A stretch of 64,000 nucleotides of DNA from Perna viridis. Lineage: Eukaryota. This document shows positions 3,701-43,800 of this stretch, piece by piece (position 1 is the stretch's first letter; each line of letters opens with the position of its first letter). The notes beneath the pieces were generated by a model. The model did no database searches. It was not told where the DNA came from and saw only the letters and a program-made list of their open reading frames with translations. Location of the stretch: positions 41,770,851 to 41,834,850 of the forward strand of contig CM074519.1 of assembly GCA_037379345.1 (NCBI GenBank), written 5' to 3'. Both the position numbers and the translations under genes were made by a program.

Positions 3701-6700
3701 TATATCAAATGCACAAATAAATATATATATACGATATAGGAGTGACAGTTACATATACGATACAGGAGTGAGAGTTACATATACGATACAGGAGTGAGAG
3801 TTACAAATATGATATAGGAGTGAGAGTTACATATACAATATAGGAGTAAGAGTTACATATACGATACAGGAGTGAGAGTTACATATACGATATAGGCAGG
3901 TGCATAGCTGAGGCCAAATTGAAGTGTAGGCAAAATTATGGCAGGAGGTCTGGGCAGAGCCCTGGTAGGGGGTCCAGGGGGGCAAAGCCCCCCCCCCCGA
4001 AGCTCTGTGGAGATAGCGTTTTAGAGCATCATTTATGCCTCTCCTGGATGTATTTTATCTAAAAAAAAAAAAAAATTTAAAAAAATTGGCAAAATTAAGT
4101 GCAGCTACACGCCTGATAGGAGAAAGAGTTACATATATGATATAGGAGAGAGAGTTACATATATCTCTTTATAATATATGACACAGAAAATCTATGTGAT
4201 AAACCCCTCTGATAACACCTCTACTAATTGCTTTCATCCCGCAATAATTAGTTGATCTGCTTTTGGAGAGATACATGCAATCAATTAACTTTTTCATTAT
4301 TCTTTAATATAAAGAGAGAATTTTCAAAATTCAAAGGGAGGTTACTTTGCATATCATGTAATAGTATGATTGAGAGGTCACCAAAACATGTTCTATTACA
4401 AATCCATTAAAAATGATGTGCACATACAATGTGAAGAGGCAGCAAATTTGTCCTTGTATTATTTTGCAGTACTAAGGAGGTAAACACTACATAATAATCT
4501 CACCATAATTAAATGTCATTGTAAATTAATACTCTGGAATCTATACTAAAAAGTCAACAGTCAATATTTTATAAGAGATCGACACAATTAATATCAAAAT
4601 AAGAATTCCAAAATTTTTCACCTATCACCACTTGTGTAAATATCTAAATTGACAAAGTGAAAATCAAACACTTGATTCCTTATGGCAAAAAGTGCAATTT
4701 ATAATAATCAATTTGACCTGTGACCTCAACCAATCAAAACCACCCTGATATCTCTTTTTTTCTTATCAAAATACTTGCATTGGGGAGAACGACAAGGATG
4801 TAACACTGAAACAGAAGTTAAATCAAATATAAAGAGAATAGAATCAACATGAAGTATAAAGGTTTAAACATAGAAGTTATGTATTACCTGTTTATCCATC
4901 AAACTTCTGCTTTTTATCTGTAAAACATGACAAATACTAATAAAAAAATTTAATAAATGCATCTTAGACAAGTCAAAATTAAAACCCATTCCCCTATTCA
5001 AAAACATTCACCCTTTCATCTCCAAACTGATTTGGCTCAAAATCTTAAATAGTAGGTACAAAATGGGAACTGTAATAAAGATTATGTGAAAGTTTCACTA
5101 AATTTCCTTTAGTGGTGTCAATAAGGAGGAGTAATGGCTAAGAGATGGGTAAATCTCTGTAATGGAAGGAAGGAAGGTCAATAAGGAGGAGTAATGGATA
5201 AGAGATGGGTATCCCTCTGTGTAATGGAAGGAAGGAGGGACGGTCAATAAGAAGGAGTAATGGATAAGAGATACGTACCCCGCTGTGTAACTGAAGGAAG
5301 GAAGGTCAATACGGAGGAGTAATGGATAAGAGATGGGTACCTCCTTGTGTCACAGAAGGAAGGAAGGAAGTTCAATAAGAAGGAGTAATGGATAAGAGAT
5401 GGGTACTCCTCTGTGTAACAGAAGGAAGGAAGGAAGATCAAAAGGGAGGATTAATGGATAAGAGATGGGTACCCCTCTGTGTAATGGAAGAAAGGAAGGA
5501 AGGTCAGTAAGAAAGAATAATGGATACGAGTTGGGTACCATTCTGTGTAATGGAAGGAAGGAAGGAAGGAAGGAAGGAAGGTCAATAAGGGGAGTAATGA
5601 ATAAGAGATGGGTACTCCTCTGTGTAACAGAAGGAAGGAAGGATGGTCAATAAGAAGAAGTAATTGATAAGAGATAGGTACCCCTCAGTGTAATGGAGGG
5701 AAGGAAGGAAGGTCAATAAGAAAGAATAATGGATACGAGTTGGGTACCATTCTGTGTAATGGAAGGAAGGAAGGAAGAAAGGAAGGTCAATAAGGGGAGT
5801 AATGAATAAGAGATGGGTACTCCTCTGTGTAACAGAAGGAAGGAAGGATGGTCAATAAGAAGAAGTAATTGATAAGAGATAGGTACCCTTCTGTATAATG
5901 GAAGGAAGGTCAATAAGGAGGAGTAATGGAAAAGAGATGGGTACCCCTCAGTGTAATGGAGGGAAGGAAGGAAGGTCAATAAGGAGGAGTAATGGATAAG
6001 AGATGGGTACTCCTGTGCGTCTAACGGGAGGAAGGAAAGACAGTCAACAAGGAGGAGTAATGGATAAGAGATGGGTACCCCTCTGTGTAATGGAAAAGGA
6101 AGGAAGGAAGGTCAATAAGAAAGAATAATGGATAAGAGATGGGTACCATTCTGGGTAATGGAAGGAAGGAAGGAATGTCAATAAGGAGGAGTAATGGATA
6201 AGAGATGGGTACCCCTCTGTGTAATGGAAGGAAGGAAGGAAGGAAGGAAGGAAGGTCAATCAGGAGAAGTAATGGATATGAGTTGGGTACCCCTTTGTGT
6301 AATAGAAGGAAGGAAGAAAGGAAGGAAGGAAGGTCAATAAGGAGGAGTAATGAATAAGAGATGGGTACCCCTCTGTGTATCAGAAGGAAGGAAGGATGAT
6401 CAATAAGAAGGAGTAATGGAAAAGAGATAGGTATCCCTCTGTATAATGGAAGGATAATCAATAAGAAGTAGTAATGGAAAAGAGATGGGTATCCCTCTGT
6501 ATAATGGAAGGAAGGTCAATAAGGAGGAGTAATGGATAAGAGATGGGTACCCCTCAGTGTAATGGAGGGAAGGAAGGAAGGTCAATAAGGAGGAGTAATG
6601 GATAAGAGATGGGTACTCCTGTGCGTCTAACGGGAGGAAGGAAAGACAGTCAATAAGGAGGAGTAATGGATAAGAGATGGGTACCCCTCTGTGTAATGGA

Positions 6701-9700
6701 AAAGGAAGGAAGGAAGGTCAATAAGAAAGAATAATGGATAAGAGATGGGTACCATTCTGGGTAATGGAAGGAAGGAAGGAATGTCAATAAGGAGGAGTAA
6801 TGGATAAGCGATATCACAATTTGAAAGTATAAAAAAACCTATGTCTTCCCCTTGCAAATTTTAAGATTTTGCAGACCCCAAAAAACTGATATGCAACAGC
6901 ACTTTATAAACCACCCCCAAAATTTTCAGTGTATATAGATCTACTACTCTGTAATGTAGAATTATAACACAAAAAAAACAAAAACAAAAGGAGCTTCCCT
7001 TCTCATATCTTGACCTACTCTTAGAGATTGATGGTAAAGGAAAACTACTGACCAAACTATACAACAAACGCGATGACTTTCCATTCCATATTGTCAACTT
7101 TCCTTTCGTCTGTGGCAACATCCCTAAAGCATCTGTGTATGGAGATTTCATAACACAGCTCATACTTTATGCCAGAGATTGCTGCAGACTTTTTATATCA
7201 TGCTAGACTTGTTGATCATGTTTGTCTGGCAAGCCAGATTAGTACCATAGAGGGATCAAATTAGTCTGGCAAGCCAGAATAGTACTGTAGATTGACATGT
7301 TTATCCAGCAAGCAAGAATAGTACCCAAGATTAATCACATTTTTCTGGCACGCCAGATTAGTACCGTAGATTGATCATACTCCTACCATGTTCTTATCTG
7401 ATTCCTCTATCACTGAATCTACAATAGTTACATGTAATGAATATATACCAGCAATACATCGATTTATCAACAAACTTTATTAAAAATAAGTAACTTCATG
7501 AATTACCTTGCTTCAAGAGAATTAATTTTCTTTCTTGTGTCTCTATCATATACATAAATTTCTGGTGTATCTCCCATAGTAACGAACCTACGGCCATCTG
7601 GACTGTATGCTATATTTAGTAACTGTCGATCTTCTGTCATCGTCTGTAGACAATTTCCATCTTTATAATGCCATAGTTTTATATGACCAGATGCATCTGC
7701 AATAAAGAATTTCTAGCTTAGAAAATCAGTTTAGTATTAATCTAAAAAGCTGTCATTTAAAAAAAAATGTAATCAGCCTATCAAGAAACAGTTCTTGAGA
7801 GTTTTCTGACATCTTTTTAGATTTAATTCATCAATAATAACATTAAATTACATTGTACTTACAAAAAATATTTACACAAGAGACGAACAAACCATCTCAA
7901 ATCTTATCAGTTTTTCTAAAAAGAAATGCTAAACTGTCTCCCTCTTTTTAACCATCCAGGTAAATGCACATGAATTTTTTGCCTTTTCAATGAAAGACCA
8001 GGCATGACCAGTTTAAGTAAATTTTCTGGTAATATTCATGTTTTTGCAATAAACATAAAATTTTAGAAAGTGCTTTATAGGTAAGAATTTTCAAAAATTT
8101 GGATGTTCACAATATACATCATAAAATCTCAATATCAAAAAATGTTGCCTTAATATTTGCTAAAACCTTTCTAAACATAAATTAGCTACAATGTACATTT
8201 GTAGGTGTAAGTACCTTTAGACCTTCAAAAAATACTTACAGAAAAAATACATTATCAAGAAAAAAAATTGTCAAAATTACATATTCAGCTGATCTGGGAC
8301 AAAATTATATAGGTATGATATTTTGAAGTAAATTTAATTTTGCACTCTTTCAATGTATTTAAATAATTTGAGATAGTTTGGACCACTTTTACGAAAAAAT
8401 ATATTTTGCCATGCATTTAGATTTAAGGTATAACAGTCACTTTCCATGAGCTCCATTGCTAATAATGGAGCTTCTATCATATGTTTAGCCTTAAAAAGAC
8501 TTAAATATCACATACATACAAATGCTGCTTTTATAAACTAAAAGCTGTGATAATAGGAGGATTCCTAACATGCACAGCGACACAGGCTCCTAGAAGTCAA
8601 GAGCTTAAAATAGAATGGGAATTTCCCTACATTTCACAGTGTAAAAATATGATATTTTTGAGAGAAATACCAGTAGATTTTTCATCAAATCAGAAAGCAT
8701 GTCACATCTGAAATTAAATTATTTCACAATAAGCCTCATTATTTTGATGAATTTGCTTTCATCATGAGTTTTAGCCTTTATCCAGTGGTGGATCTAGAGA
8801 ATAACCTAAAGGGGCCAACAGGGGAACCACAAAAAAATCCTTGATAAACACATTTACACACAAAAATACGCTTTTTTCATAAAGTTTGCAAATTGATAAG
8901 GGGACATGACATATAACCTTTACAACTTGTACACAGTCTTCACGTTTAATTTTTGGAACACAGACACAAGCCGAACTTTAAATTTATGAAGTTTTTCTTT
9001 AATTATAATTGGTTTGTAACTCCACAATTTGGAGAAATTTCACAAGCCCAAAACAAGGTTTACTGACCAGGGCAATTTTGAAGACTGTGAACATGATGCT
9101 ATCAGTCTACATCCTTCCCTGTTCCCTCAATTACCTACATGTATAACCTTTGAACCTTAGCACCTCTTTACATGAATTCATCAGTCTATCCCACCCTGGA
9201 ATAACCTTTAACCCTACTTACATGATGCTATCGCTCTTTCCTTCCCCTGAATAGTTGACCTTTTTCTTCTTAACCTTTAACCCTTCTTAGATGATGCTAT
9301 CACTCTTTCCTTCCCCCTAACTGGCTGACCTTTTAACCTTGACTCCTACTTACATGATGCTATCAGTGTATCTTCTTCCCCTCTTCCTGGATACCTAATT
9401 TGTGTGACTGGTAGATGGTGACTAGTAGTATCCTCATCCTCTAGATAATGGACTATCTGGGGGTCATGACATTTAATCATCTGGAGAAACACAAATATGA
9501 CTATCAGAACTGTTTTTTTTTGCAGCTTTGAAACTATGGTAGTACATTGATCTTGTTTATTGCAAATACATCTCTTGATTATATGATAACCATTTCATAC
9601 AGTATAAAGTATGCTTTAAAATGGTTAGGAAATACCCTTGTCTATGTCTAGGGAAAAAATCAAACAATACAGATGTATCCATACAAGTATCCTTAGTGCA

Positions 9701-18264: not shown

Positions 18265-19261
18265 ATGCATTATTCGTGTAACTGTTCACTAACAGCTTTC
18301 TTTCTATTTAAGTCCGTAACCGTTCCGCTACCACAGTCACCTGTAAACAAACCAGTCCCGCGGTTAAGTCAGAAAACGTGACAATTCGGTCCACAGGAAA
18401 TTCGGACCATATAGCAACACCATTGATTTTTTTGTTGTCTTTATCCTTGGCAATACAACGGATTCAACTTAACCTGTGTAATTGCATATTCCTGCTGATC
18501 TGTTAACTGCTATTGTGAGTCGTTTATCCTGTGTAGGATTGCTGTCTTATAAGAATTGTCTCCTCTGTACCAAATATATTAATCAGAATGTTGTTCATTT
18601 CTAAGAAACATTTCGTTTTTATCTGTTTGTGAGATGCCTAATATACGAAAATTATACGCACTTAAAAGTTTAAAGTACCTATGCAACTATTATGTAAAGC
18701 GCACATAAGATTTGTAAACGAGGGGAATCAAGGGAACAAGGATTAGAACGCTAATAAAAAGAACACAATCCAGGGACAACAAACTAAAGGCAGACACACA
18801 CAGCGAAGAACGTGGATTAACTAAAATAGCACATACTTGGAAACAAATATAAATGAGAAGCATGGACTGTACTTAAAAATATTTTAGTGATGAGGTTTCC
18901 CGTTTTTATGGATCTCTAAGTTTAAGTCAAAATATGAGGCTGATTTAAAAGTGTATTAAGGTATTCCAAATGATTGAAATGAATGTATTATTGATTGAAT
19001 TTAGTTATGTGTTTGTTTGTTATATCAGTTCAATTTAGACCTTACAATTGATTAAAGTGGGCAGATAAAGCCTTATATTATAAATCTAGTTAAACCCACA
19101 GCAGATTTAATGATCCTATCCACAGTCAGATATTGGACATTAATGTTGCCGTTGCATAGCGATTGATTTTGTGGAAATGTCATCGTGACGGTTCTGATAC
19201 CATGGACAGTTTTACTTTTGTTGTCGAGGCCTTTCAGAGTTTGTTTGAAGGTGTTATTTAA

Positions 19262-19452
19262 CCGGTGCACCTGGTCCATGCTCCCAGTTTTTAGTGGAGT
19301 CCGAGTTGCTCATTTGCTTTTGTTACTTTGTATGTATGATTTTAGTTACTTTATGTTCTTTGCTGTGTATGTTTGTTTTCCATGTCTGGACTTTGTCCCT
19401 GGATTACATTCTTTTGATTACCGCTATAACCTTGGTTCCCTTGATTACTCTT
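19262..19452 (+). mobile_element. 3' tail fragment of the Penelope-like family
   Basis: Near-identical to 1815-2008 and 30455-30646. Confidence 0.8.
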
Positions 19453-19637
19453 TAAGACCTTAATACGGCAACTTCCAGGTATTTACCGATATACGTTATG
19501 TTCATTTGTTGCGTTTAACTCAGTTCACTCTTTCGTTGTAGTTAATGAATAGATATAACCAACTACAAACTTAGTCATCACTGATTTGTTTTATTTGTAA
19601 AATAGATGCTGTATTGGTTTTCTAAATTTCTTGCATG

Positions 19638-21572
19638 TTACTTTAAACTGTGTAATTGTTTCCTATTGTTGCATCCGGTTAAAATATTGTTCCAATATCT
19701 GACTAATTTCTCCTTTTCAGATACCGTAAATATTGTTTGTCCAAAGTAATTATGAGTATTTCCTGGACGCTTGAATGTCCCTTCGACATTTCTAACAACA
19801 CAAGATAAATCTTCATTTGTAACTATAATTTTAAGGTATTCCAGCACTGATTTCAGTACAATTTCCGTATTCTGTTGAAGAGTGTCGTATCTGATGATTT
19901 TAAGTGGTCCCGAGTATTGTAACCAACGACTGTTAAATGTATACCAACGTTCCATCTCTTCATAGAGAAAACTTTTCCATTCTACAATGAATACATATAA
20001 AATAGAAATGATCGGAGGTAAATAGGCTTAACGTTTTGTTTCTTCTTCGTGTATTTTTTGCAAGATTTTCAAAACCACTCAGACAAATACAGTTGAATTT
20101 CTAAAGAAATTCAATACAATCGAATAAAAAATCAATTAAGCAATCAATCCAATTTAAGATAATATACTGGCCATATAGTTCAAAGGCGCATGCCGTAAAA
20201 TTGTGGATTTGTATTTTCATATTACATGTACGAAGATATCCTAATGNNNNNNNNNNNNNNNNNNNNNNNNNNNNNNNNNNNNNNNNNNNNNNNNNNNNNN
20301 NNNNNNNNNNNNNNNNNNNNNNNNNNNNNNNNNNNNNNNNNNNNNNNNNNNNNNNNNNNNNNNNNNNNNNNNNNNNNNNNNNNNNNNNNNNNNNNNNNNN
20401 NNNNNNNNNNNNNNNNNNNNNNNAAATCGTCAAAAATACCAACCTAACAATTACAGTATTTGTAGTGTTAATTACCTATTTTAAAATGTATTTTTTGAGC
20501 GTGTCCTAGGTGTCCAGCGCATCTTCTGTTAAATTCTGCAAGCAATGCATCCTCGGGTTTCCTAATTAAGAGAATCCCCTTGTCGAATTTCTGTAAAGTT
20601 TCGTCTGTTGATTCGTGTGTTTTTACTGTCAGTACAGACCGATTGCTGATTCCCTCGCCTGGAAAACCATAGTACTTTAATCCTAGGTCCACATATTCAC
20701 TTCCGGTGGCAATACCTGAAACACATCAGTAACAATCGACAGTGTCAACAAGTAAGAGTCAGGCTGATAGTGACACCCCTAATTCTTTCTTCGGTACTTT
20801 CTTTTAATTACTAAAGCGCATTAAAAACACACAAAAAAATGGAATTGCTAAAATAGCGTGAAGAGAGATAAATGTTTATAGTTAAGAATTAGGAGCATAA
20901 AAATGGCGTGAACTCCCTTGTGCATTTCTATCATTTTTTTAATGATTTCTTCACACATCGTAGATCTGCATTATATGACGATGTCTTCAAAGATGCATTG
21001 AATGTATAACAGTAATAAGAATCTCCGCAATATTACCTGATGTAGCACTATTACTATATAAGATCTTTCGATTTTTTCATGGATTTTTAATTTATTATCG
21101 CGTGACTGTTACATTGTATAATCAGTAGAATAAACACAGGTGAACAGATTTGGCACGCAAGTATTGCTCGTCAACAAAGCGTTCAAAGTGCGAATCTCAA
21201 AACCGTCCACTCTGTTAAATTGTCGTGTAAGATGTACCAAGAATATACACTTGTATTATCAACTAAAGTAACGGAATTCTTTTTAAGAGATGACATACCA
21301 GTTGCTTGTTGTAACAGATGGCGTAACCACGTGTTTCCTGAGCCGGGGTAACTAGCTAATGATATCAGTGGTAAAGGCTTAGAAGACAGACCAATTGGTC
21401 TACAAGTCTTAAACTTGTTCAGACGTCCAACATACAAGGAACCATATGTATGGATGAAGTGACTTGGTCTTGATTTAGATAACTGGTGAACAGTCAAAAT
21501 ATTAAAGAAGACAATGACGGTTACTAATACAGCACAGACGTAGGACTTTGCACATCTATGGCTCCGAACCAT
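19638..21572 (-). CDS. WSCD-family (WSCD1/2-like) sulfotransferase without WSC domains; type II membrane protein, about 285 aa
   Basis: Exons 21572-21299, 20715-20476 and 19981-19638 (858 nt, in phase). N-terminal hydrophobic anchor (YVCAVLVTVIVFFNIL), PAPS-binding loop LASYPGSGNTWLRHLLQQATG, VKTHE, LLIRKPEDALLAEFNR and IRYDTL. These motifs are typical of the WSCD sulfotransferase domain. An assembly gap lies in intron 2. Confidence 0.88.
20247..20423. other. Assembly gap (177 N)
   Basis: Run of N inside intron 2 of the sulfotransferase gene. Confidence 1.
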
Positions 21573-23704
21573 GTGGTACCACTCTCCTTTTTAAAACCTT
21601 TAAGCACAGATTGAAAATTAGATTTTTTTATTTAAACTTTCTGAACAATCTACCTGTAATTTTTTAGATTTGTGGTAAAAAAGAATTGTCTCTGACATTT
21701 GTAGGTTTGAAATGCCCTCAATGAACAGGTTTCTATTAAATATATTTATCAAAATTTGGAAAAAATGTACAAATAACATATTTTAGGAGTACCATTTGCG
21801 CCGCATTAATATTATTTAACTTTCATTATTTATCAAACTTGCTCAATTGAGTGATTTTAAAATGTCTGCAATTGAGTTCACAGAATAAAATAATAAGTGG
21901 TGCAAACCTACAACGGTCGCAAATAATTTGTTGTGCAAGCGAACTCAAAATTGTCGCAATCGGACATCCCCTGAAATTTTGGGCTTAGTTATCTCCCCTT
22001 TATGTAGAGAATCATAGGTGATCCTGTACTTTATAATTTGTAAAATATACTTGAAAAATTAATCAAAACTCGTGTATTTGCTAATAAAATCAGCCTTATA
22101 GTTCACAACTTTGAAACTGAGCGGACCTAAAGCTTTTTAGAGATGTTTATATAAAATATTATCCAAGTGCTCAAGCACTAAATCAATTAAGACTTTCAAT
22201 CTATGAAGCCCAATTTAATCTTGAACGGATTCTACAAAAATAGTAAGGTGACTTCCCTATTTAGAAGAATTTCCGAATTTCCTTTTTTCAATGTATCAGG
22301 GAATCTGAAAAAAGATTGAAAAGGGGAGATAACTCAATTACAAGAAAATGATCAAATATCAAAAATATGGCAATATTTCATGATCAAGCTCCATGTGGTA
22401 TGTTTTTTTTTAAATTTTTTAAACGAACTATTTTTTGGACAGATACTTCTTGGTATTAAAATGCAAATAAAGAAACTTTATTGGAATTTTGATTCGAATT
22501 CATCGATTTTTTTAGAGACCAAACATTAAAATTTTAGAAAAAAAGGTGGTCTGACAATTTTCCGCCTATCTCTGTAAATAGTCGGGTGATCCTCTATTTC
22601 CTACCTCAATAGCGGGATTTGACTAAATGTATGTTACAGGATATATTTATTGTTTTATTTATATTTAAAATGTAGTGTATGCTAAACACATAACAACAAT
22701 AAAGGCGCTGGAGTATTATTTCAATTTGCATATATTCTGCATATATACTACTCAATCTAAAGGAAATGTGAATTCATTTCAGGGCATAATTCCCCATTTT
22801 GGACCCTGACTTATCAGAAAATGAGTCGGGTGACCCACTACTTTCTTTTCATTTTTGGAAAAATAGGTAAAAAGTTGTTCAACATATATCAAAATAAAGA
22901 AAACGAAACTCGGGCTTCATAAATCAAGGAGCCACCTTTATTAAAAAATATAATATGTAATACGATCTTAAAAAGTGAAAAAAATGACAAATTCATGTAT
23001 TTCATTACGAGAGTATTTGAATATTAGAATACATAATGATTGATGTTTAAAGCGAAATACTGAACCAAACTTCTGACGTGTCATTAAAGTTTGATCGAAG
23101 AGAGTTGTGGAACCTCATCCATCCAAGCCAGGGTTTATGAGTCCACATTTGCTCCCTCAACGAAGGTGGACTCAAAACCCTGACTTAGGAGGATGGTGGA
23201 CCCCCCGCCAAAAAATCAAATCAAATCAAAACCAAAAACAAAAATTCAAAAAAACAAAAACAAAACAAAAATAAAAATACACATGTACTAAAATTAAAGG
23301 ACCATTGTTGCAAAAGAATTGCTAAGGTTTTTCCCATGAATATTACTTAATCCCAGTGTTTCAGAGTAAGAATTATCCAATTTTTAGAGTGAAATGTAAA
23401 ATAAAATAGAATAATAAGAAAAAAAATCATTTTCTCATCGAAACTCTGAACCAAGTATTCATTGTTTTAGACGTCCTAACTGACACGTCCAGCTGTGTAA
23501 AACATCAACTGAAATATGAAGCGTGTATCTTTTACATGTGTACTTATGTTGTTACACATATTTATTTGGTATAGAACTCAACTTGATTTCAGATTTTCAG
23601 ATTTTGAAAACAGATGATTGCAGAGCATGACATTATTGTATTAATACTTAGCATAAAAATTGTAAGTAGAGATATTATGAAATTCGAAGGGGTTAATTGG
23701 CTTA

Positions 23705-24171
23705 ACTTTTCACGCCTTCCTACAGGTAAGAATACGGAGAACACACGCTGAAGTGTAATAGTAACTTTCACGCCTTCCAACAGGTATGAATACGGAGAAC
23801 ACACGCTGAAGTGTAATAGTAACTTTCGCGCCTTCCCACAGGTATGAATACGGAGAACACACGCTGAAGTGTAATAGTAACGTTCACGCCTTCCCACAGG
23901 TATGAATACGGAGAACACACGCTGAAGTGTAATAGTAACTTTCACGCCTTCCCACAGATATGAATACGGAGAACACACGCTGAAGTGTAATAGTAACTTT
24001 CACGCCTTCCCACAGGTATGAATACGGAGAACACACGCTGAAGTGTAATAGTAACTTTCACGCCTTCCCACAGGTATGAATACGGAGAACACACGCTGAA
24101 GTGTAATAGTAACGTTCACGCCTTCCCACAGGTATGAATACGGAGAACACACGCTGAAGTGTAATAGTAAC
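23705..24171. repeat. 58-bp tandem repeat x8, highly homogeneous
   Basis: AACTTTCACGCCTTCCCACAGGTATGAATACGGAGAACACACGCTGAAGTGTAATAGT. Confidence 0.97.
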
Positions 24172-25738
24172 ATAACGTCATTGAGCGCAGTGTTAAGTTG
24201 AGAAAATGCTCCGCCTGACAAGTGTCTGTGATCTGTTATGGTAGTTGATATATATGTTAGTATTGAAGACAGAAAGAAAATACTGCTTTTTTCGGAATTT
24301 ATCGATTTAAAGCAGGAAGCGTTTCCTCGAGTCTCGGACTATGTTTATAGTATGATAATTTATGCAACGAATTTCTGTACAAAGGCTTTAGTCATTCTCT
24401 TGGGAATACACCATCATACTTCATTTACGACACAGGGATTTCAATGATTTAGAAATACATTTTTTTTTGTATTAAAGTGAAGGTTCGCGCTTTACGCTGT
24501 AATCATGGTGACATGCACAAACTTCTAGTTAGCACTGACCGTTTCCTTCTGGAATTTTATGTTAAGATTTTTTTTTCGGCTAAAGCGCAGGAACTAAAAA
24601 ATAAATTTTTGAACGTCTACAGTATTAAGTTATGGGGGATATTGATTTTTTTCCTGTCAATGGTAGAGTGAAACAAAATGCTCAAATTTTGAATATTTTT
24701 TTTAATCCAATCAATAATCTAAACTAGTTTGTCAATTATTTGTAAAACAGTTGCAGGTCTTTGCTTTGAAAGCTTTCCCCTTCTAATGTACATGTTAAGA
24801 CCTTTTGTTTGACATACAACATCAAATAATCCCAGTCCCCCCACCCCTACCCTCAATGCCTTACCAATAATGACATCGAATCACTTGAATCTACTAATAT
24901 ACTAAATTATTTTATTTTCAATCGAGGGCCAGGCGATTTCATCTTTATGTATTTAAGCATTGGATATCATGGTGTTTTGAACCTTTCCCTACATTTAGTG
25001 AAACATGATCACGCATATATTTGTCAATGTTTGTCATAATTGAGAACTATATACAACAACGCTAGAAAGAATTACTTGAGGTCAACAGCTTACACTACCA
25101 AACTTATCAAAAAATGATTTCAAACATTAAGATAAAAAGTTTAATTGATAATACCCTCCATATTAAAATCATTATTAAATATTATTTTAGGGATACCAGA
25201 TCTACACATAAAACTTTTCAAAACCCAATTGAGGCATTATGTTAGCCATGAGTTACTTAACAGAAGCGAGTCGGCATGTATAGCAGATCAAATATTAGTC
25301 GTTAAATGTATCGACGACGTCGTTTAATGAGGTATTTATGTTACATTTATCTATATTTCGATCAATTTCAAAAAGATATAGCCTCTAATCAACCTCGCTG
25401 TGAAACAAGCATTCACTGTTTCTGAAAGAAATTAAAAGCTTCACGAAGCATGATAAGACTGCAGCATGTTGAACACTGTTCCTTTGGGGCATATGTCGTC
25501 ACAATACTAGGATTTGCACACTTAAGAATAGGGACATACAGTTCATTATGCAATTGGATAACCAGAAGTGTAGTCACAACTGATTTCGAAATATAGCACA
25601 AAATTTAAAATTAACTTAAAGAGGAAAAAAAGTTCTGCTAAACGGCGCTAATCAAAGACCCTTGCCTTCGATCTCTGTTACTGTATAAAAGAGTTGTAAA
25701 TCTGAATGAAAAACGAAGGCAGCAATTTTTATAAGGAA

Positions 25739-28841: not shown

Positions 28842-31800
28842 TCATCCAATGGGATTGAAACCAGTCAGATGTAGATGTAAATTAGTATAGGAGGTGACAT
28901 CTTCGTCAAAATTTCGCCCTCGTTTTGAGTACCCGGCAGAACCGTCAACAGCGCGTGAAAATACTACTCTAAATGTCGGATGTTTTTCCGATGTATCTCC
29001 GTATCCGCTGTGATGATCTAAAGCATCGAAAGCACTCGTCGCTACTTTCACAAATTCTGATTTTCGCGAAGTTATAGGAGTCTTGGAATTAAAGATGTCT
29101 CTTGAGTTTAAAGGTGTTGGAAATCTCTCATTTCCCAACATAGATGTCTTTGACGATGAGAATTCTATGGATTTGTTACTAAGAAACATTTTGTCTCCTT
29201 CTGTCAGATAATGCAGAAATACGTTCTCTATTGCAAAGTAGAAATGTTTCATGTCTATAGATGACTTTGAAACATCCATGAAGGTGACTCCATTTTCTCC
29301 TATTACCTACAAAACAGACAAATCGTTTTACAGGTGTACAGTGGAGACAAAAGTTTGGTTAAATATAAAAAAAAACAAACTAGAAAATCACCGGGGCACC
29401 CCCTTGCCGAATTTCTGGTTTCGCCAGTGTAAACACTTTTTGTTTAAATACTGACACACATACACACTTGTACAAAATATGAATCACTAACTTGTATAAC
29501 AGTGAGTTGACCGTGACCCCTCTGACCTTGTTAAACTAGAATAGCCATTCATCTTTTGAATTAGTAATAATGGAACTTAAACTCTTGCTTTCAGTTGTTT
29601 AACTGCTTGAATTAAAGTGTCTATATAAATGGCCATAGAGTTTAAGCTCCATTGTAACTATTCAACAGGGGAGTTCATTTCGCAAAACTGGTGTTAACCT
29701 AGGGCTACTCCAATTCAACAAGGTCAGAAGTGAAAGTCAACCGACTGTAAGAATTCGTAAATATAACAAGAGGCTCCCAGGAGCCTGAATCACCTACCTG
29801 GTTGAATTTTGCCTTTCAAAGGCAATAAATTTAACAAGAAGTTGTCCAACAATTTTGACTGAAGAAGTCTATGGTAGGGCTTATCATATGGGTCATTTCA
29901 ACAAATTGAAAGTTTCTTTCAATCTATCATTGTTTTTAAGATAATGACTGAAAACTGTTAAAAAAGTCATTTTTCCCCTTTCAAGGGCAATAACTCTTAC
30001 AAGGTGTCAGGTCTCACTAACCACTTCCGGGTCAAATTGCCACCCCCTATGTAGTACCAAAAACACACTGAACCTAGATATATGCATTGTAAATACATTA
30101 TTTGTGTGTATTCTGATCAAAAATAGTTAAAATAAAGCTGAGAATGTGTACTTTAAAATCATTTTTGTAATTTACTACAAAAAGTGAATGAATATCATAT
30201 AAATGTGTGAGTAATTTGCCTCCATGCTGTCAGTTAGAAGAAAAGGTAAAAATGTTGATTTTCAGTTTTTTTTTTTTTTATTCAAGTAAATTTTGTGAAG
30301 AATTTCTAAGATCATCGTACCATTAGAATAAATTTAGAATAATGATTTTGAAAGCCTTCGTTTCCAAGCTTCGCAATGGTATGCAACTTTCAGGTGTCAT
30401 TTGTCTTGGGAATTCACAGTGAAACATTGAAAATTACTAGTTGACGCTTACCCTACCGGTGCACCTGGTCCATGCTCCCAGTTTTTAGTGGAGTCCGAGT
30501 TGCTCATTTACTTTTGTTACTTTGTGTGTATGATTTTAGTTACTTTATGTTCTTTATTGTGAGTGTCTGTTTTCCATGTCTGGTCTTTGTCCCTGGATTG
30601 CGTTCTTTTGATTACCGCTATGGCCTTGGTTCCCTTGATTACTCTTTAACCTCATCTGACAAATTTTATCCCAGGCCTGTAGACTTTAGTAGTCTTAATA
30701 ATAAGGATCATTTCAGCTATTGAAAGAATTTGGCTAAACCTAACGGTTTTGGAGATATATACATGTACGTAAAAACTACTGTCTGACCCCCACACTGTAT
30801 GTTCTATTTCTAGTATCGGCTGCCATGTTTTTTGACGGATCAAAAATCCCCACTACAGTTCTATGCAGGATACACCATGGAACATTCGTACCATGTTTGG
30901 TTCCAATTAATCAAATAATGTCAGAGGAGGAGATTTTTGAAAGAAATAACATTAAAAATAGCAAAAATCGTTGAAAAAGGGCAATAATTCTAACATGGCT
31001 TAACGGATTAAAACCAAACTTTGACCAGAGATAGATCTTATCATACTGAACACCTTTACCCAATATCAGAATTTAGTTAAACCTAACGGTTTTGGAGATA
31101 TATGTGAAAAACTACTGTCTGACCCCAATCTTCTGTTTTTAGTAACAGCAGCCATGTTTTTCGACGAATCAAAAATCCCCACATTAGTTCTATGCAGGAT
31201 ACCCCAAAGAACATTTATACCAAGTTTGGTTCTAATTAGCCGAGTAGTTTCAGAGGAGAAGAGTTTTGTATAATTGTTAACGACGACGACGACGGACGCC
31301 AAGTGATGGCAATAGCTCACATGGCCTTTGGCCAAGTGAGCTAAAATATGATGTTCACGTTATGATTTGTATACAATTCAATGGAAATACAGAAAGCAAT
31401 ACCTCGGCAACAGCTTGATCAGTTCCCACGTGTCGGATGATTAATGCAGTGTTCTCGTCAATACCGATGCCCCATTTCACTCCATTCGGGAGACGTTGAG
31501 TTTCATGCAACACCCTGACAAGACGCCCCTCTCTACCCTTTTGACTAAAATAGAATGTTGGGGAGCATATAATAATTACCACTGCAAGGGAGGAACTATT
31601 TCATTGAGAACTTGTCTTAATTTTCCGCGATTTTATGTGTTTATTTCAATTAAATATTACATTTAGTCCTAGTCAATCTGATATATCAAATATTCCATAG
31701 GCATTTCTGTCTTAGCAAATAAATCATTCATTAGATGTTTTGGATTTCCTTTACATGATTATGCAACACTTAAAAATTTTAAAGAAGCTCGGAATTGGTC

Positions 31801-34800
31801 AAAATTATCATTATTAAGGGAGGTCTGTAAATGTTTATTTAAGACCCTTACGTATTTATGAACCTCAACAATTCGATTTCAGAACGTCCACAATTCGATT
31901 TCTGGACCTCCAATTCGAATTATGGTGGTCCTGAAATCAACTTGTGGAGCTTCTCAGATATTTATGGAAGTCCTGAAATCGATTTGAGGAGATCCTGAAA
32001 ACGAATTGCGGAAGTCCATAAATAATTAAAGACCTCCTTAAAAAATGATAATTTTGACTTATTCCGTACCTCATATATTTTACTGTTTTTCGGAGTGATA
32101 AAAAAAGTCTACTATAGGTAATCATTGTTGGATATATAATTATATACACTGAAATTACTTTCTATATGTTAACTGTTTTTGCATATAATATCTATGTATC
32201 GTGTTTAGATCACACCTTTTACGTCCTCTTTCCAGTAAAATATTGAATTGAAAATGCATATACTAAATGCTTATAAAACACAAGACTATTTGTATCGCGC
32301 TAGAACTCTAACATATAGGCTTCTGGAACAGGGTTATGTTGCTCCAAGACTGAAGTAATCACTACAGAAGTTTTGTGGTCGTCATCATGAACGCGTGGTG
32401 GATTGTTATGGTGTATCCATCTGCACCATGAAAACTGATTTATTCAACGGGTCATGGTTTTCCTTTCCTCGTTTGTCTACCCCGGACTGACTTTTTATGA
32501 GCAACTCGGCGGGTGTGTCTAGAAAAACAGAGGACGCTTACCCTACTGGTGCACCTGGTCCATGCTCCCAGTTTTAGTGGAGTCCGAGTTGCTCATTTGC
32601 TTCTGTTACTTTGTATGTATGAATTTAGTTACTTTATGTTCTTTGTTGTATATGTCTGTTTTCCATGTCTGGTCTTTGTCCCTTTGTAAATTCTCTTGAT
32701 TACCGCTATAACATTGGTTCCCTTGATTACTCTTTAATTTCCATTGTCTTAACACATTTTGTAGCAGAAGCTGTCATTTTTGTTTATGCCCAATCAAATG
32801 CTATGCATGAATTAAAAATATAATCTGCTTTTCGTGAAAGTATAAATTTAAGGTAGATTTATCATGGTTGATATACGAACCTGAAATGAGCATCCAGTAC
32901 GAAGCCATCGAGGAAACCTAGACCTCCACGTTGGTCGTACAGTAAGTAATCTCTGTTTTGGCTTGCATGTATCTCATACGGACCGTACTTCAATGTATCA
33001 TACGAGTTACCGGCTACAATATAAAGATGCTATTCTGTACGTATAAGCTAGCAATTTTACTTTACTAGAGCTAATTTTAAAAACTAATCATGATCAATAA
33101 GTAATACCGGTTTTCTTTAAAACGTATATACTGCATTATTTCCATTTAAACCATAAGGTGCATAGGTTTGGTAACCCTTCTGCGTCATAATAACCCTTCA
33201 ATAAAGGAAACTGATTAACACATGACTATGCCCGGGGACTGTGTAAACGCTTCAATGCTTTAAACCGTGTGTGTGTGTGAGAGACCCCAAATGACAGTCA
33301 AGGGGTTAAGAAACCCATCTGACCGTCATGTATTAGAAATACCACATATGAGTGCAAACCGGGTCTAACAGTATTGAGTATATATGTTGGCAGAAAACGA
33401 TAATTAAACCAAGTATATCCTGCAAATGATTGGCTAACATTGTATTACGATAGATTTTTTGGGGGGATTTTATTGGTTTATTTTCACAAAGACAGTCGAA
33501 TTATCTGCTAAAAGCAACAATATCCTAGCTTTATAATGCACGAAATGAAGGGTGTAACGGATATATACGGAAAGTGCTATAATTTTCAACTTTATTGTTA
33601 TAGTGCAATTTAACAACAATTTGCGTGTAGTTAAGGGTGTTATTTTATTTTGCAATCTCAGGTTAAAGCAAATAATTATCAAGTTATTTATTCCACAATC
33701 ATAAAGCCAACGAGTTTCTGAAACTATAGATATATCAGATCGTTTCCCTCCCTACAACATGACAACTAATGACATACATGTACATCCCTGTCCGATAATA
33801 AAAAGATGTGAAGTACCCACTCCTCCGCTGAAAGTACATACCTCCTCCCCCTGCATACATGTAACAGCTGGTGACACACAATTTCCTGTTCGGAAATGGA
33901 ACAAGATAGTTCCGCTTTTGTATTTTTAATTTTCCCTTCTACAACATTACGAAGTACGAAATGCATTCCTCATCGTCGCTGGATATTTATCACAAGGGCC
34001 ATTTTTTTCACAAAGTTAATAAAGATATGTTGAATTTGAATTTATATTTGTTTCTATGTTCCTTTCCTACAATATGACAGCCGAGGACGCAAGTTGTCTC
34101 CCTTGTTGGAGCTAGATATGATTACACTACTTACTTCCTCCCCACAGCATTACAGCTGAGGACATGCATTCCTCCCCAGCGCTGGAACCAGATACCACAA
34201 TACCTTTGTTATACATGTCCTTAATGGTCAGTAGTGCTGGTGATGGTACTCTGTTCCGTGAGTAGAGACTTGAAAGTAAAAAATGTTGAAGAAAATTGCC
34301 CGATTTAACTATATTGCCATTAACGAAACGAAACCACCGAAAAGTCTATCGATTATAGTCCAAATCTCAAATTTGGCTAGGCAATGCTAAGAAATGTTTT
34401 TATTAGGAAAACAATTTCTAGAGAAACCACGAAATGACTAAATAAATCAAGCGATAAAAGTCCTAATTTTTTTGGCTAAATACTTAGAAAACATTTGTAA
34501 TAAGACAATAATCAAAGTGGCCAGCCATTTTAAATTAGGTCACAAATTTTACGGAATACAATATATTTTTGACAAAACGGACTTAAAGTTAGTAATGGCA
34601 ATTCGTTGGCTATTTTTATATTTTCTTTCCGCAAATTAAAATACGTATTTGTTAACTTCTAACCAGATGTACCCATTCAAAATGCTGAAAACCAAATGTT
34701 AAGTGCGTTTAAACTGCTTTTATAAAGGATTTCCAGGATTGTTGGACTTTCTCATCAGGAAGGTCACTTTTGTTTCGTCAGTTTAGTCACAATCTGCCGT

Positions 34801-37152
34801 GTTAGGGTAAACAACTATATAAAATGTTTTAAATGGGAACTATTTTACTATAATTCGGCAGATTTCAAGGAACGTCGGAACAAACGGTTTGCAATATGGC
34901 GCTCAGAAGTAAGAGGTTGAGGTATGCGCATGGAGAAACGGACTTCAAACCGCTTACACTGTAGGAGTAATGGCACGCGGATTCCCAGTTTTCCTGTTTT
35001 TTTTTTGTTTTTTTTTTGTTCAGTATTATAAAAATCTGACAGGAGGTGACTCATGCATGTCAAAAACCCACCAAATTCATATTTATTACTTCTTAAGAAG
35101 CAGTTCTGAATACATAATCAGTCTCAGTTTTTCATTTGATTGTTGCTCTTTTAAGAAAAAAATAATATAGAGATTGTACATGAAACTGGCACTTCGCAAG
35201 AGTTATCGTTTTTTTTTTAGATTTGATTTGGTTGTTTAGAGTGGGAGATAAGTGTACGATTTTCTCAAAAATATAGACCTGAATACAGAAAGGATCACAG
35301 TTATGCAAGTATATAGCATATGCAGACTGGAAGTAGCATTGTTTGTTCGGTGAGTTTTTCAACACAATGAATCACTTTGCTATTGACAGTGTCTGTTTTA
35401 TATGAATTGGTGCTTAAGAAGTAAAACAGTGCAATAAAAACTAGATTAAGCTTACGCATCAATAATCCGTTCTGGTTCTCCACCGGCGAAATAAAAGCCT
35501 GTCTGTTGTCTTATCATGCTAATAACAGTAGGATCTGAGTTTCTTGAGTAGTCGGTCCAGGAGATTGGAATACAGTACACTGACCTTGCATGGTGTTGGT
35601 TAATGAAGACATTAGTATATTGTTTACAACTTGATGTGGGATATAATGTAGCCGCCACTATTACACCAATTTTGGCTACATTACTGCCTCCCTGCAATGA
35701 AATTATCAGAAGTTGAACAACAAGAACAACGCTTATTTATTCGTGTTCTATTCAGTGCTCATTTTTTTAAATTAAGAATTGGCAATAATAAAAGTGCAAT
35801 AAACAAATATGCACATGGAAAATTTATGTTATTTTTCAATGGACAATTTTTTTTATCATAGCCATTTATTATTAGAATTAATTTTAAAACATGTTTTTAT
35901 CTTTAAACAATGGAAAAGTAGCTCTGAATTTAACTGAATAGGGGGTGTGTCAATATTTTTTTATCCATTGAGATATAACAAGATTATTTTAACCAATCAG
36001 ATTGCAGTATTTATCTCAAATCAATTTATTTAGAAATGTTGTGTACCCTAAAGTGACCTTCTTGCCGGGTTTCTTAATTGTACGTATTGCTAGGACAACT
36101 AAGTTAACTACTAAATCCCCATCTCAGGTGTTTAACAAGTGTCACAAAATTGTCTCCAAAGTATTGTGGTACTTGTTATTCATAAAGTTCCTTCAATCAG
36201 ATGTTGATTTCCATATAACCGGATAAAAACGTAATATTTTTTTTTACTCTTTATACCATCATCACATTTTCACAACAAAAGGAAGACTGGAAACTTTAAT
36301 TCAAAACTGCTTTTTATACAAATGACGAGGATTGTAGCAAAGATACATTGTCAAAGCCCACTAGTAATCTTTCTTGTTTGAAGATAATTATCTGTACAAA
36401 AACAAATATATACAGGTAATGAAACCACTTTGTTGAACTTTCTGATTGATACAAAATTTGTTCAGTTTGGAAGATGTCTTTTTTTTTTCAACAGACAGCA
36501 GAATCCCTATGGTTACCAGTTTTCTACCTCTATTTTCTGAACTTTTAAATGATTACTTAATCCAAATAAAAGAGACGAAAGTTGGCACAATCCTTTATTG
36601 TCAGCCTTCACTATGATTAAATAATCCATTTACCCAAAATGGTTCACACTGAGATTCATTTTGAAATTGACCAAATTAGAGAGCACTCAAACTATACGAT
36701 AAGGATCTCCAACTGTCATAGATAACCTTTCTCTTCAAAAGTGCGTATTGAAAAAAGAAGGACTTTATTAGCACTCGCCAGGAACGCGGATGTCACCCTT
36801 GGTTTTAAGTTTTAGTTAGACTCGTGTTGTCCGGTTTATTTATTTCTGCTTTTTAGATCATTCGAGTTTTTATGTTTTTGTTTTGTGTGTGTTAGTTTTC
36901 ATTTACATCATCGGTATTTCTATACTTCTTCATTTAGATATTAATCAGCATAATATAAAAACTTATCAAACTCGTGGTTACATAACTTACCGCGAGGTCA
37001 ATGATTGTCTGATAGAAATGAGTATTATTATCGTTATAAATCCCTCCCCCTAAAACTAAAGTCCTCGAAGCAGCACCATCACAGCCTCGTACTAATATGG
37101 AAACAGCAGTAACAAAGAGGTAAAACCAGACTAACTGGTTGCTTGCTGACAT
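28842..37152 (-). CDS. Secreted cyanophycinase-like serine peptidase (peptidase family S51, class I GATase-like fold), about 423 aa
   Basis: Exons 37152-36991, 35691-35456, 34268-34135, 33013-32881, 31544-31403 and 29306-28842 (1272 nt, in phase). Signal-peptide-like N-terminus (MSASNQLVWFYLFVTAVSILVRGCDG). Motifs LVLGGG, GFYFAGGEPERI, nucleophile GSSAG, GGLGF...LDAHFSQKGREGRL and GIGIDENTAL give the Ser-His-Glu triad of cyanophycinases. Confidence 0.88.
29500..29748. mobile_element. Foldback/palindromic MITE remnant
   Basis: CAGTGAGTTGAC..TCTGACCTTGTT..AATAGCC..AATGGAACTTAAACTCT pairs with AGAGTTTAAGCTCCATT..GGCTACT..AACAAGGTCAGA..GTCAACCGACTG. Confidence 0.6.
29765..31345 (+). mobile_element. 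Helentron-like non-autonomous element with nested insertions, in cyanophycinase intron 5
   Basis: 5' AACAAGAGGCTCCCAGGAGCCTG..CCTGG, internal tandem units, a (GAC)n microsatellite and a 3' hairpin AGCTCACATGGCCTTTGGCCAAGTGAGCT. Interrupted by about 30010-30440 and the Penelope tail at 30445-30646. Confidence 0.7.
31818..32037. mobile_element. MITE flanked by TTAA (piggyBac/Kolobok-like)
   Basis: TTAA|GGGAGGTCT...AGACCTCC|TTAA, with internal inverted CAATTCGATTTC/GAAATCGATTTG repeats. Confidence 0.65.
32290..32734 (+). mobile_element. 5'-truncated Penelope-like element: RT C-terminus plus 3' tail
   Basis: LYRARTLTYRLLEQGYVAPRLK*SLQKFCGRHHE...YGVSICTMKTDLF continues the peptide of 7003-7210 and is followed directly by the repeated tail. 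Confidence 0.8.
33745..34195 (-). repeat. Degenerate tandem echoes of the cyanophycinase exon 3 end plus donor
   Basis: The true junction TACTTACTTCCTCCCCACAGCATTACAGCTGAGGACATGCATTCCTCCCCAGCGCTGGA is re-seen in decayed form at about 34063, 33935, 33835 and 33745. Confidence 0.6.
36310..36660 (+). mobile_element. Highly degenerate Penelope-like RT core fragment
   Basis: LLNFLID..FVQFGRCLF/QQT..IPM.T...PLFSEL resembles the RT motif F.Q..GIPMG.NC.PL.ADL. Confidence 0.5.
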
Positions 37153-40810: not shown

Positions 40811-43800
40811 CTATATTTTTTTCTCTGGTTTGAGTAGATATATCTGTCTATAGCTGCCAATGGCCATAACGGGACGGGCGGAGTTATTGTCATGGTCACA
40901 GCAGTAAACTCCCTGACTTAGATCTGTTACCTGGCCTATTGTCTGTTAAGAAATAAAAAAAAATGAATATAAGACATTTGCCACATTTATCACTAAAGAT
41001 AAAAAATATCAGTATTTTAGGGTTGTGACAGAAGTCTACAGATATAGGATTTTTATAACTTGTGTAGTGTTCCATACATATGATTATGTGTGAGCAAAAG
41101 GAACCATGCCTTTATGAGGGATTTATATAAGCACCCTGCCATTTCTGTCAAATTTCTCTAAATAGATTTTAAAGCTAGAGTTTTTATTTCACCTGGACAA
41201 CTGTGGTGCCTCTTCAAAAGATGCAGAGAACACTATTGTGTAGAGGGCCATGAATTAAATCCTTGACAGATTGTAACAAAAGACTAGAGGGCTGCATATG
41301 GAAGATAGCATTAACTGAGCGTGTCAGTATGTGCCTCACATTCTGTGTGGAAGGAGACTGACAAAAGTAGAAAGAGAAGAGACAACCCAATGATTTTATA
41401 ATGTAGAAAGAAAAGGAATATTTATAAACCAAATTACAATCCCATGAAAGACAAAGTAATACATATTTATTGCGTTTGTAATTTCTCTTTGAAATGAAAT
41501 ATATGAAAGTTGTCGATAAACTAGTCAATATTGTGATATTTAGACTGCTCACAGGACAGTGCTATTGACAAAGACCATGATAATGACCTCACTTACAGCA
41601 GGATCATTATCGCTGTCATAGTCGACACCACTGTCCTGTGGGCAGTGTAAATATCACGATATTGACCAGTTTATCAACAACTATTATGTTAATTTCATTG
41701 AGGAACCATATCCTCGATTTTTTTTCAGAAAGTCATGCAAATCATGTTTCTGCATTATACATTGACAACTGCTTGATCACAAATGCATTTTAATAAGCGG
41801 ATGTAACTCTAAATTTGTAACCGGTCATTTCCAATGTGTGATAATGCCCGCGGGCATTATCACCATATGGTATTGACTGGTAAAACTTTATACTGCAGGT
41901 TAATTAATACCAAATGTAAAAGTTTTAACCAATTGAAATTACTGATTTTTCACTGATATGAAATGAATTAGTGTTAATATATTTTACAATGAAGTAATCT
42001 TGTGATATTTTTTAACTTACACTAAGTGTTCTTCTCCATCTACCAGTGTTTTTAAGTTTAAACTTACACAATGTACCAGTATTCATCTATTTCCTTTTTG
42101 AGCTAAGTGTTCCTATATCTACTACTTTGATTCAGTTTTTACTTACACTAAGTTTTCCTATATCTACTACTTTGATTCAGTTTTTACTGACACTAAGTGT
42201 TCCTATATCTACTACTTTGACTCAGTTTTTACTTACACTAAGTGTTCCTATATCTACTACTTCGACTAAGTTTTTACTTACACTAAGAGTTCCTATATCT
42301 ACTACTTTGATTCAGTTTTTACTGACACTAAGTGTTCCTATATCTACTACTTTGACTCAGTTTTTACTTACACTAAGTGTTCCTATATCTACTACTTTGA
42401 CTCAGTTTTTACTTACACTAAGAGTTCCTATATCTACTACTTTGACTCAGTTTTTACTTACACTAAGTGTTCCTATATCTACTACTTTGACTCAGTTTTT
42501 ACTTACACTAAGAGTTCCTATATCTACTACTTTGACTCAGTTTTTACTTACACTAAGTGTTCCTCTATCAACTACTTTGGCTAAGTTTCGATCAGATCCT
42601 CCACATAGTATACTGTCTCTACCCAACCACTGGCAACAGTATAACTAAAATCAATTTAAAAAAAACCAAATATTTTGGTCAGAGCTTCTAGTCCTACTTA
42701 AATGAGCTGATAGAAAATCAATATAGTGGACCAACACAGCAGAAAATCAATATAGTGGACCAACACAGCAGGAAATCAATACAGTGGACCAACACAGCAG
42801 AAAATCAATATAGTGGACCAACACAGCAGAAAATCAATATAGTGGACCAACACAACACAATTCACCTAGTATGTATATTGTTTTAATTCATTTTCAGATC
42901 AAAATACATGTATCATGAAGTACACCAAGTTTCCTTCTTTTAGCCTTAAAATTGTTAAAACTGGCTTTTTTGCCATTATTGGCTGTTTTGCCCTTAGATA
43001 CAATCTAGGTGTGGTACAAAAAACTGTATTGTTTATATACATGATATATGTGATACAAAAAGGGTAGTAACAATAAACACAAGCCAATAATCCAAAGGAA
43101 TAGTTAAAAAGGAAAGTCTGTGTAAAAACTGGAAAGTTGGACCACCCTTTTGTTCAGAAATGTTGTTGATTTTTTGGAAAATATGAGCAAAAAAGAGCAA
43201 ATTATTGCCTGGACGCCCCTCTGTTTCTTAAAATGTATGGAATCATCCCTACAATATGTAGATAATAAGAAAGTGGGAATGAGGTCAGAAGCTGGTAACA
43301 TACCTGTGTTTGACCCATTGGATCTGGAGGTACATCTTTTATTTTTTCTGCTGATGAGAAATCCCAAATCTGAAATGTCATTGTTTATACAAAGTATGGG
43401 TAAATCTTAGATAAAACTCATTTAATTAAGAAAAATATCTAAATTTGTGGAAAAATGTATTACAAGATTAAATACAAGTATCATATAGGATTGAATAAGA
43501 ATTTCTTGGGTTATTTTCTAACCATCTTAGTTACATTTTTTTTGCATATTCCTTAATTCACACATTACATAATAATTTTTCCTTATCAGAGGTAAGTCAG
43601 AGAATGATATGATGATTTATCTGCAAAAAAGACATATTTAAGATAATAATAAACAGTATTTAAGACTTTGGAGGCATCATATGTGGATTTGGTGATGGCA
43701 AATTGATTTTACTGGAGATGTATAAATGGGAGATAGTAAACCAGTATTGCAACTGTCAAATCTAGATTGATGAAAACAAAATTTTTAAATACTATACAGT

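Follow-up and report, generated by a model that had tools for sequence, protein, structure and literature searches.

The gene considered here lies on the minus strand (positions 37152-28842) of a 64-kb stretch of the Perna viridis genome (64,000 nucleotides, on the contig designated C9, hereafter the window), and was confirmed to be a genuine, intact and spliced animal gene. Its sequence identifies the product as a CphE-type serine peptidase of family S51, the family of the bacterial cyanophycinases, and the new observation is that the same genome holds a second copy, on the contig designated C3, with a canonical substrate pocket beside the remodelled pocket of the window copy. The reading put forward for the window copy, to which we would give an even chance, is that of a retuned CphE-type exopeptidase acting in the gut on dietary cyanophycin-type beta-aspartyl polymers with a shifted side-chain preference.

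Gene structure and transcript evidence

All positions are those of the window, and residues are numbered on the 423-residue spliced product. The gene comprises six exons with a joined length of 1272 nt, corresponding to 423 codons plus the stop, and the five introns (1121-2096 nt; phases 0, 2, 1, 2 and 0) are bounded by GT-AG in every case. Its parts are as follows.

36991..37152, minus strand: exon 1, residues 1-54; ATG, predicted signal peptide (about residues 1-23/26) and first S51 core strand
35692..36990, minus strand: intron 1, 1299 nt
35456..35691, minus strand: exon 2, residues 55-133; altered GGEP motif; stand-alone TIGR02069 match (E 1.3e-4)
35478-35476 and 35475-35473, minus strand: exon 2 pocket codons E126 and P127 (CphB Asp100 and Gln101)
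34269..35455, minus strand: intron 2, 1187 nt
34135..34268, minus strand: exon 3, residues 133-178; GSSAG, with nucleophile Ser162 at 34183-34181
33014..34134, minus strand: intron 3, 1121 nt
32881..33013, minus strand: exon 4, residues 178-222; D218-A219-H220, with catalytic His220 at 32888-32886
31545..32880, minus strand: intron 4, 1336 nt; host repeat with further copies at 1794-2008 and 19261-19455
31403..31544, minus strand: exon 5, residues 222-269; pocket residues K224, R226 and R229; triad Glu252 at 31456-31454
29307..31402, minus strand: intron 5, 2096 nt; interspersed host repeats
28842..29306, minus strand: exon 6, residues 270-423 and stop; end of the CphB-like core, then a CphE-type extension of about 105 residues
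28671..28841, minus strand: 3' untranslated region, to the limit of the contig from run X1

All six exons and all five joints were recovered with 0 mismatches on single contigs (1222-1457 nt) from each of X1, X3 and X11, runs from three studies that are presumed to be RNA; the X1 contig begins at 37166, 14 nt upstream of the ATG. The intron-containing open reading frame of about 420 residues that a first-pass annotation had described from the letters alone was thereby borne out. Since the joints occur in three of four runs, the remaining run (X21) being almost readless, the gene is spliced in some samples and near-silent in others. Sampled words from exon 6 were present to the extent of at least half in 20 of the 24 runs listed and almost absent from three, none of the runs containing such words being recorded as RNA. 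Genomic fragments starting at the exon 6 boundary hint that intron 5 may be shared widely.

The repeats within the introns recur elsewhere in the window at identities of up to 94%. One of about 200 nt, found at 30443-30649, 32523-32737, 1794-2008 and 19261-19455 and very abundant in the sequencing runs compared, is likely to be an element of the short interspersed nuclear element (SINE) kind.

Assignment to the CphE-type peptidases

The three S51 triad motifs previously noted were found at residues 160-164 (GSSAG), 218-221 (DAHF) and 249-254 (GIDENT), and Ser162, His220 and Glu252 line up with the triads of both CphE and CphB within the G-x-S-x-G, D-x-H and G-x-D-E motifs. The signal-peptide-like N-terminus was also recovered as a hydrophobic leader ahead of the core, with an 11-residue Kyte-Doolittle maximum of 2.41 at residues 11-21, and no hydrophobic stretch occurs at the C-terminus; the protein is thus predicted to be secreted. 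A hydrophobic leader was present in 29 of 38 family rows, a further eight being unscored as the start of the core was not located. The C-terminal extension, by way of contrast, had been put at about 150 residues and is really about 105 (approximately 320-423): the CphB-like core extends to about residue 319, the first 50 or so residues of exon 6 belong to it, and alignment with the Pseudomonas protein CPHE_PSEAG indicated that the extension is common to bacterial CphE.

Relative to CPHE_PSEAG, the window protein exhibited 37% identity over 376 residues (E 1e-65), and the C3 copy 41% (E 3e-78). A profile search returned cyanophycinases at E 1.6e-42 to 8.5e-36, as against 3e-5 for dipeptidase E (PepE) of Xenopus. 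With the Mytilus orthologue P0161 standing in for the whole window protein, the Peptidase_S51 profile PF03575 was passed at 27.3 bits against a cut-off of 23.9, window exon 3 alone scoring 12.6 bits, and the predicted model (mean predicted local distance difference test score, pLDDT, 93.2) matched CphB with Z 31.3 and a root-mean-square deviation (rmsd) of 2.1 over 256 aligned residues, whereas the best PepE match gave Z 19.6. The cut-off of the second relevant profile, TIGR02069, was passed by two of ten long proteins scanned, and three of the six window exons matched it singly. A grouping with the PepE-type dipeptidases, considered and rejected, is ruled out by sequence, by structure and by the presence of a separate PepE (alpha-aspartyl dipeptidase) gene on C7 (33845273-33847663; E 3e-29 to Xenopus PepE).

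Exon 6 yielded little when searched by itself. Its model (pLDDT 93.5) found no match of Z >= 5 among 48,161 chains, the best being 3.5, which is no proof of a new fold, and a word-indexed search returned zero relatives among 129 candidates; a HMMER profile recovered 148 proteins among 1.84 billion representatives. Extension to full-length relatives gave sets of 46 and then 289, of which the best 120 were examined; the experimentally characterised CphE of Pseudomonas anguilliseptica was among these relatives. Matches to exon 2 in the PDB search were at chance level only, and SprA matches to exon 6 in the Atlas search were sub-threshold and were dismissed. When bacterial genomes were scanned with an alignment of exon 5, three loci emerged from 59 candidates, and of these only L009 is an S51 gene, and that one distant.

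A canonical second copy and a remodelled pocket

Searches of the 723 Mb assembly (46 contigs) located two CphE-type loci, the window gene on C9 and a second on C3 (G000:C3:5358499-5363002, equivalent to L006:2000-6503; minus strand) with six exons and a product of 417 residues. The two products share 49.6% identity and the intron phases are identical. In trees, the window copy pairs with Mytilus copy A (100/100) and this pair is joined by the C3 copy plus Mytilus copy B (97-100), all four mussel copies being nested in the molluscs with support 100/99; three Mytilus species each have an intact orthologue of the window gene, 52-56% identical. The duplication is therefore likely to have occurred within the mussel family, and the window copy, with branch lengths of 0.34 plus 0.56 on its side as compared with 0.17 for the C3 copy, is by this measure the diverged duplicate. 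The pocket of the C3 copy (GGDQ / DTH / R-R-R) is exactly the CphE set, and it is likely to be the ordinary cyanophycinase of this animal. A tetraspanin-like exon lies upstream of it (L006:8641-8790, minus strand; PF00335, E 8e-4).

The residues reported as critical in CphB are Gln101, Asp172, Gln173, Arg178, Arg180 and Arg183 (PMC3235067, citing Law 2009), and the same source describes them as kept in CphE except for Thr replacing Gln173. In a census of 112 long-family rows (123 non-redundant rows minus 11 short or outgroup rows), Asp100 was conserved in 100 rows, Gln101 in 102 and Arg178 in 106 (CphB numbers). The window copy retains the triad together with D218, R226 and R229 (CphB Asp172, Arg180 and Arg183), and departs from the canonical set at GGDQ, which becomes GGEP (Asp100 to E126, Gln101 to Pro127), at the Thr that becomes A219, and at Arg178, which becomes K224. 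The last change is conservative, and Mytilus copy A keeps Arg but has both E-P and A. In the triad column of Glu252, Gln stands instead in nine of the 112 rows, including Pelomyxa and a Ktedonobacteraceae protein.

Pro at the Gln101 site was confined to four E-P proteins of the 112 rows, and the other named animal rows all keep D-Q, save one partial record gapped there. The E-P / A / K combination of the window copy recurs in the relatives P0125 and P0142 (P0211 falls in the P0142 cluster), which are placed beside the copepod Tigriopus in the tree (support 89/88); a single clade of the four E-P proteins, a group defined after earlier trees had been viewed, was rejected (p 0.002). When the 151 conserved columns were compared, the four E-P proteins agreed on a single non-consensus residue at just three of them, 126, 127 and 219, each located at the pocket. 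On these sequence comparisons, the E-P/A set reads as having arisen separately in mussels and in a lineage near the copepod, as a parallel change of specificity.

Distribution and origin

The carriers given here are those among the matches listed. Animal carriers comprised bivalves, gastropods, a chiton, Capitella, Daphnia, Artemia, Tigriopus, Eriocheir, Branchiostoma, Glandiceps and lampreys, so that the family is present in at least five animal phyla and in both protostomes and deuterostomes; protist carriers were Anaeramoeba, Pelomyxa and Willaertia, and bacterial carriers included Pseudomonas, Tumebacillus, Nocardia, Kitasatospora and Leptolyngbya. Neither the view of cyanophycinases as purely bacterial enzymes, to which fungal secreted forms already in print are a further exception (PMC3612039), nor that of a gene peculiar to this filter-feeder survives the relatives found across protostomes, deuterostomes and several protist groups. 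Three side observations concern individual carriers: the long form occurs in the bacteria-eating protists Anaeramoeba, Willaertia and Pelomyxa (P0027, P0187, P0095, P0038); the lampreys Lethenteron, Lampetra and Petromyzon (P0043 cluster, P0286) have a vertebrate CphE-type gene that retains D-Q and all three arginines; and the amphioxus proteins P0023 and P0253 end in a hydrophobic tail (Kyte-Doolittle 2.85-2.89), which suggests a membrane- or glycosylphosphatidylinositol-anchored form comparable to brush-border peptidases.

The long, CphE-type family formed one clade with support 100 in three trees, the root in each depending on distant outgroups. A single branch separated the animals from all other rows in the 123-row FastTree (0.974), the 67-row tree (32) and the quick version of a 45-row mixture tree (86), and bacterial CphE grouped with Anaeramoeba plus Willaertia (99), separate from the animals. 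In the 28-row tree the animals were not together, yet a constraint holding them together was not rejected by the approximately unbiased (AU) test (p 0.29); holding the long bacterial proteins together gave p 0.34.

The horizontal acquisition suggested in the first-pass annotation accordingly divides into two. A recent or narrow transfer is contradicted by AU rejections of the window protein with bacteria (p 1.1e-4) and of molluscs with Pseudomonas CphE (p 1.4e-4), whereas an ancient one is neither favoured nor opposed, the animal constraint being tolerated as above and a single clade of all named eukaryotes being likewise not rejected (p 0.094). The gene likely predates the protostome-deuterostome split, which would place any transfer before the bilaterian split, and as to its deeper origin, these trees are compatible both with an ancient transfer and with vertical inheritance followed by numerous losses.

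Proposed function and its alternatives

CphB and CphE are described as serine exopeptidases that free Asp-Arg dipeptides (PMC3235067). Reasoning by analogy, the retuned exopeptidase would be exported via its hydrophobic leader and would work in the gut on swallowed cyanophycin-type polymers, Ser162 with His220 and Glu252 cutting the alpha-peptide backbone to yield beta-Asp-X dipeptides, while Asp218, Lys224, Arg226 and Arg229 would still grip the beta-Asp unit. Glu126-Pro127 and Ala219 may reshape the adjacent subsite, so that the side-chain preference would differ from the C3 copy's. The released dipeptides could then be split by an isoaspartyl peptidase/L-asparaginase, the gene for which, a partner whose presence had been proposed as a check, was found on C2 (28212194-28219935). 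The animals named as carriers live in water and for the most part feed on microbes, as digestion in the gut would lead one to expect.

Several points weigh against this reading. Loss of the critical Gln means that cyanophycin activity may be gone from the window copy altogether, and, judged by its pocket, the C3 copy is the better candidate for digesting cyanophycin as such, which weakens the earlier proposal that the window enzyme harvests nitrogen from ingested cyanobacteria. The window copy keeps 110 of the 151 conserved columns as compared with 124 for the C3 copy, which fits relaxed selection; the E-P convergence involves two origins only, with the grouping set after trees were viewed. 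Any cyanophycin activity of the animal members, the window copy included, would be an extrapolation from the bacterial enzymes. The profile and fold results are those of an orthologue, which itself scored 124.6 bits with TIGR02069, just below the cut-off of 126.6, and the raw RNA run X21, of which about 19% was read, gave just two reads across one joint. Finally, the family is carried by Babylonia, Eriocheir and Solemya, which are not typical cyanobacteria feeders.

Four alternatives were weighed. Rather unlikely, though best placed among them, is an ordinary secreted cyanophycinase whose pocket changes are tolerated, the two copies differing only in dose, tissue or timing. Retention of the triad, the Asp and the basic residues is consistent with it, as are the reported activity of CphE despite Thr at Gln173 (PMC3235067) and the occurrence of Ala at position 219 in oyster proteins that keep GGDQ; the near-invariance of Gln101, with Pro in the E-P proteins alone, and the joint alteration of three pocket sites in two lineages argue against it.

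Less likely again would be a different class of substrate, such as isoaspartyl-damaged proteins or beta-Asp microbial peptides, with a role in clean-up or defence instead of nutrition. Microcystin and nodularin contain a beta-methyl-Asp-Arg link; however, cyanophycinases cut at the alpha-carboxyl amide, and in those cyclic peptides that carboxyl takes no part in an amide bond. A parallel change of pocket in two plankton-feeding lineages, provided that P0125 and P0142 are indeed copepod-like, is in keeping with such a shift, and other S51 peptidases are reported to have acquired a role in the detoxification of an isoaspartyl-nucleotide antibiotic (PMC9239234).

It is improbable that the window copy, having little or no catalytic activity, has been retained for a binding or accessory role, after the manner of the pseudo-CphB of PDB 7UQV and perhaps paired with the C3 copy. 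The missing Gln, the long branch and the description of CphB as a homodimer (PMC12661447) would all suit such a role; the complete Ser-His-Glu triad of the window copy, of Mytilus copy A and of the second E-P lineage speaks against it.

A contaminant or recent bacterial transfer into this species, suggested by best-studied relatives that are bacterial and by look-alikes in the Atlas search that are 97-100% bacterial, can be set aside as practically excluded by introns with host repeats (as the first-pass annotation had argued) that are spliced and lie on a large contig, by a paralogue with the same phases, by nesting within the molluscs and by the AU tests. The retuned exopeptidase thus ranks above the ordinary cyanophycinase, which ranks above another beta-aspartyl substrate and this above a dead or accessory copy.

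A broader account is offered tentatively: that aquatic animals, mussels, water fleas, amphioxus and lampreys among them, have kept a secreted cyanophycinase of their own since the bilaterian ancestor and use it to digest a bacterial nitrogen polymer for which bacterial enzymes were considered necessary. On this account, the same three pocket residues would have been remade independently, once in mussels and once in a copepod-like lineage, and each time would have produced a second enzyme of novel beta-aspartyl specificity.

Other features of the window and genome

A cluster of several PF01112 genes is located on C10 (28701868-28736032), and an exon-wise search of the genome, by which absence is weakly established, gave no match to cyanophycin synthetase. 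Within the window, a multi-exon neighbour at about 19638-21570 on the minus strand is sulfotransferase-like, with a membrane anchor, a PGSGNTW motif and a weak PF00685 match in its last exon (E 0.011), and resembles the WSCD-type sulfotransferases. Tandem repeats at 5350-6717, 23589-24338 and 42016-42648 give rise to repetitive open frames.

Significance

According to one account, cyanophycin withstands common proteases, CphE enzymes are secreted by prokaryotes, and animals rely on gut bacteria whose cyanophycin products form too late for uptake (PMC7318851). Animal CphE-type genes with a full pocket, from Daphnia to lampreys, make grazers' own use of cyanobacterial stored nitrogen testable, with a bearing on nitrogen flow in food webs and on cyanophycin as an aquaculture feed. 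Because PDB searches returned no long CphE-type structure, comparing the two mussel copies would be a natural way to find out what Gln101 contributes. That the family is already machine-annotated lessens the surprise; it is nevertheless an animal enzyme family apparently unstudied yet widely kept.

Comparison with known systems

The automated 'cyanophycinase-like' annotations anticipated for invertebrates do exist, and refer to this same family in Mytilus, Magallana, Haliotis, Branchiostoma, Glandiceps, lampreys, Daphnia and Eriocheir; the Mytilus entries XP_063397536.1 and XP_076107375.1 are likely orthologues of the window copy (55%), with GGEP in both. The first-pass annotation knew of no functional characterisation, and no study of animal-encoded cyanophycinases was found in the open-access literature searched, which covers few subscription journals and includes a compendium of metazoan transfers (PMC13342648) that may list such genes.

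A secreted fungal cyanophycinase, reported in Pyrenophora and Trichoderma as a bacterial transfer with Spirosoma as the top bacterial match (PMC3612039), resembles the window protein by description in being eukaryotic, predicted to be secreted and of the same name, and S51 members of unknown function are recorded in fungi (PMC5567314); no fungal name appeared among the relatives of the window protein in the matches listed. PepE of Salmonella and Xenopus shares family S51 and the fold class (Z 18.6-19.6) with the window protein, but has 15-19% identity to it and no D-x-H...R-x-R-x-x-R pocket.

CphB of Synechocystis (PDB 3EN0, 7UQW) has the triad and, as judged from the orthologue model, the core fold in common with the window protein, from which it differs in the want of a leader and of the extension of about 105 residues, at 24-27% identity; Gln101 and Gln173 of CphB are both replaced in the window copy. 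The closest known system is CphE of Pseudomonas anguilliseptica (CPHE_PSEAG, P0287) and P. alcaligenes, which like the window protein is of about 420 residues, with a leader, a Ser-His-Glu triad, a D-x-H-x-x-x-[RK]-x-R-x-x-R pocket and a homologous C-terminal extension. Unlike CphE, the window gene has five introns and its product carries GGEP for GGDQ, DAH for DTH, Lys for the first pocket Arg and a two-residue insertion with Trp175, whereas neither these pocket changes nor the insertion occurs in the C3 copy.

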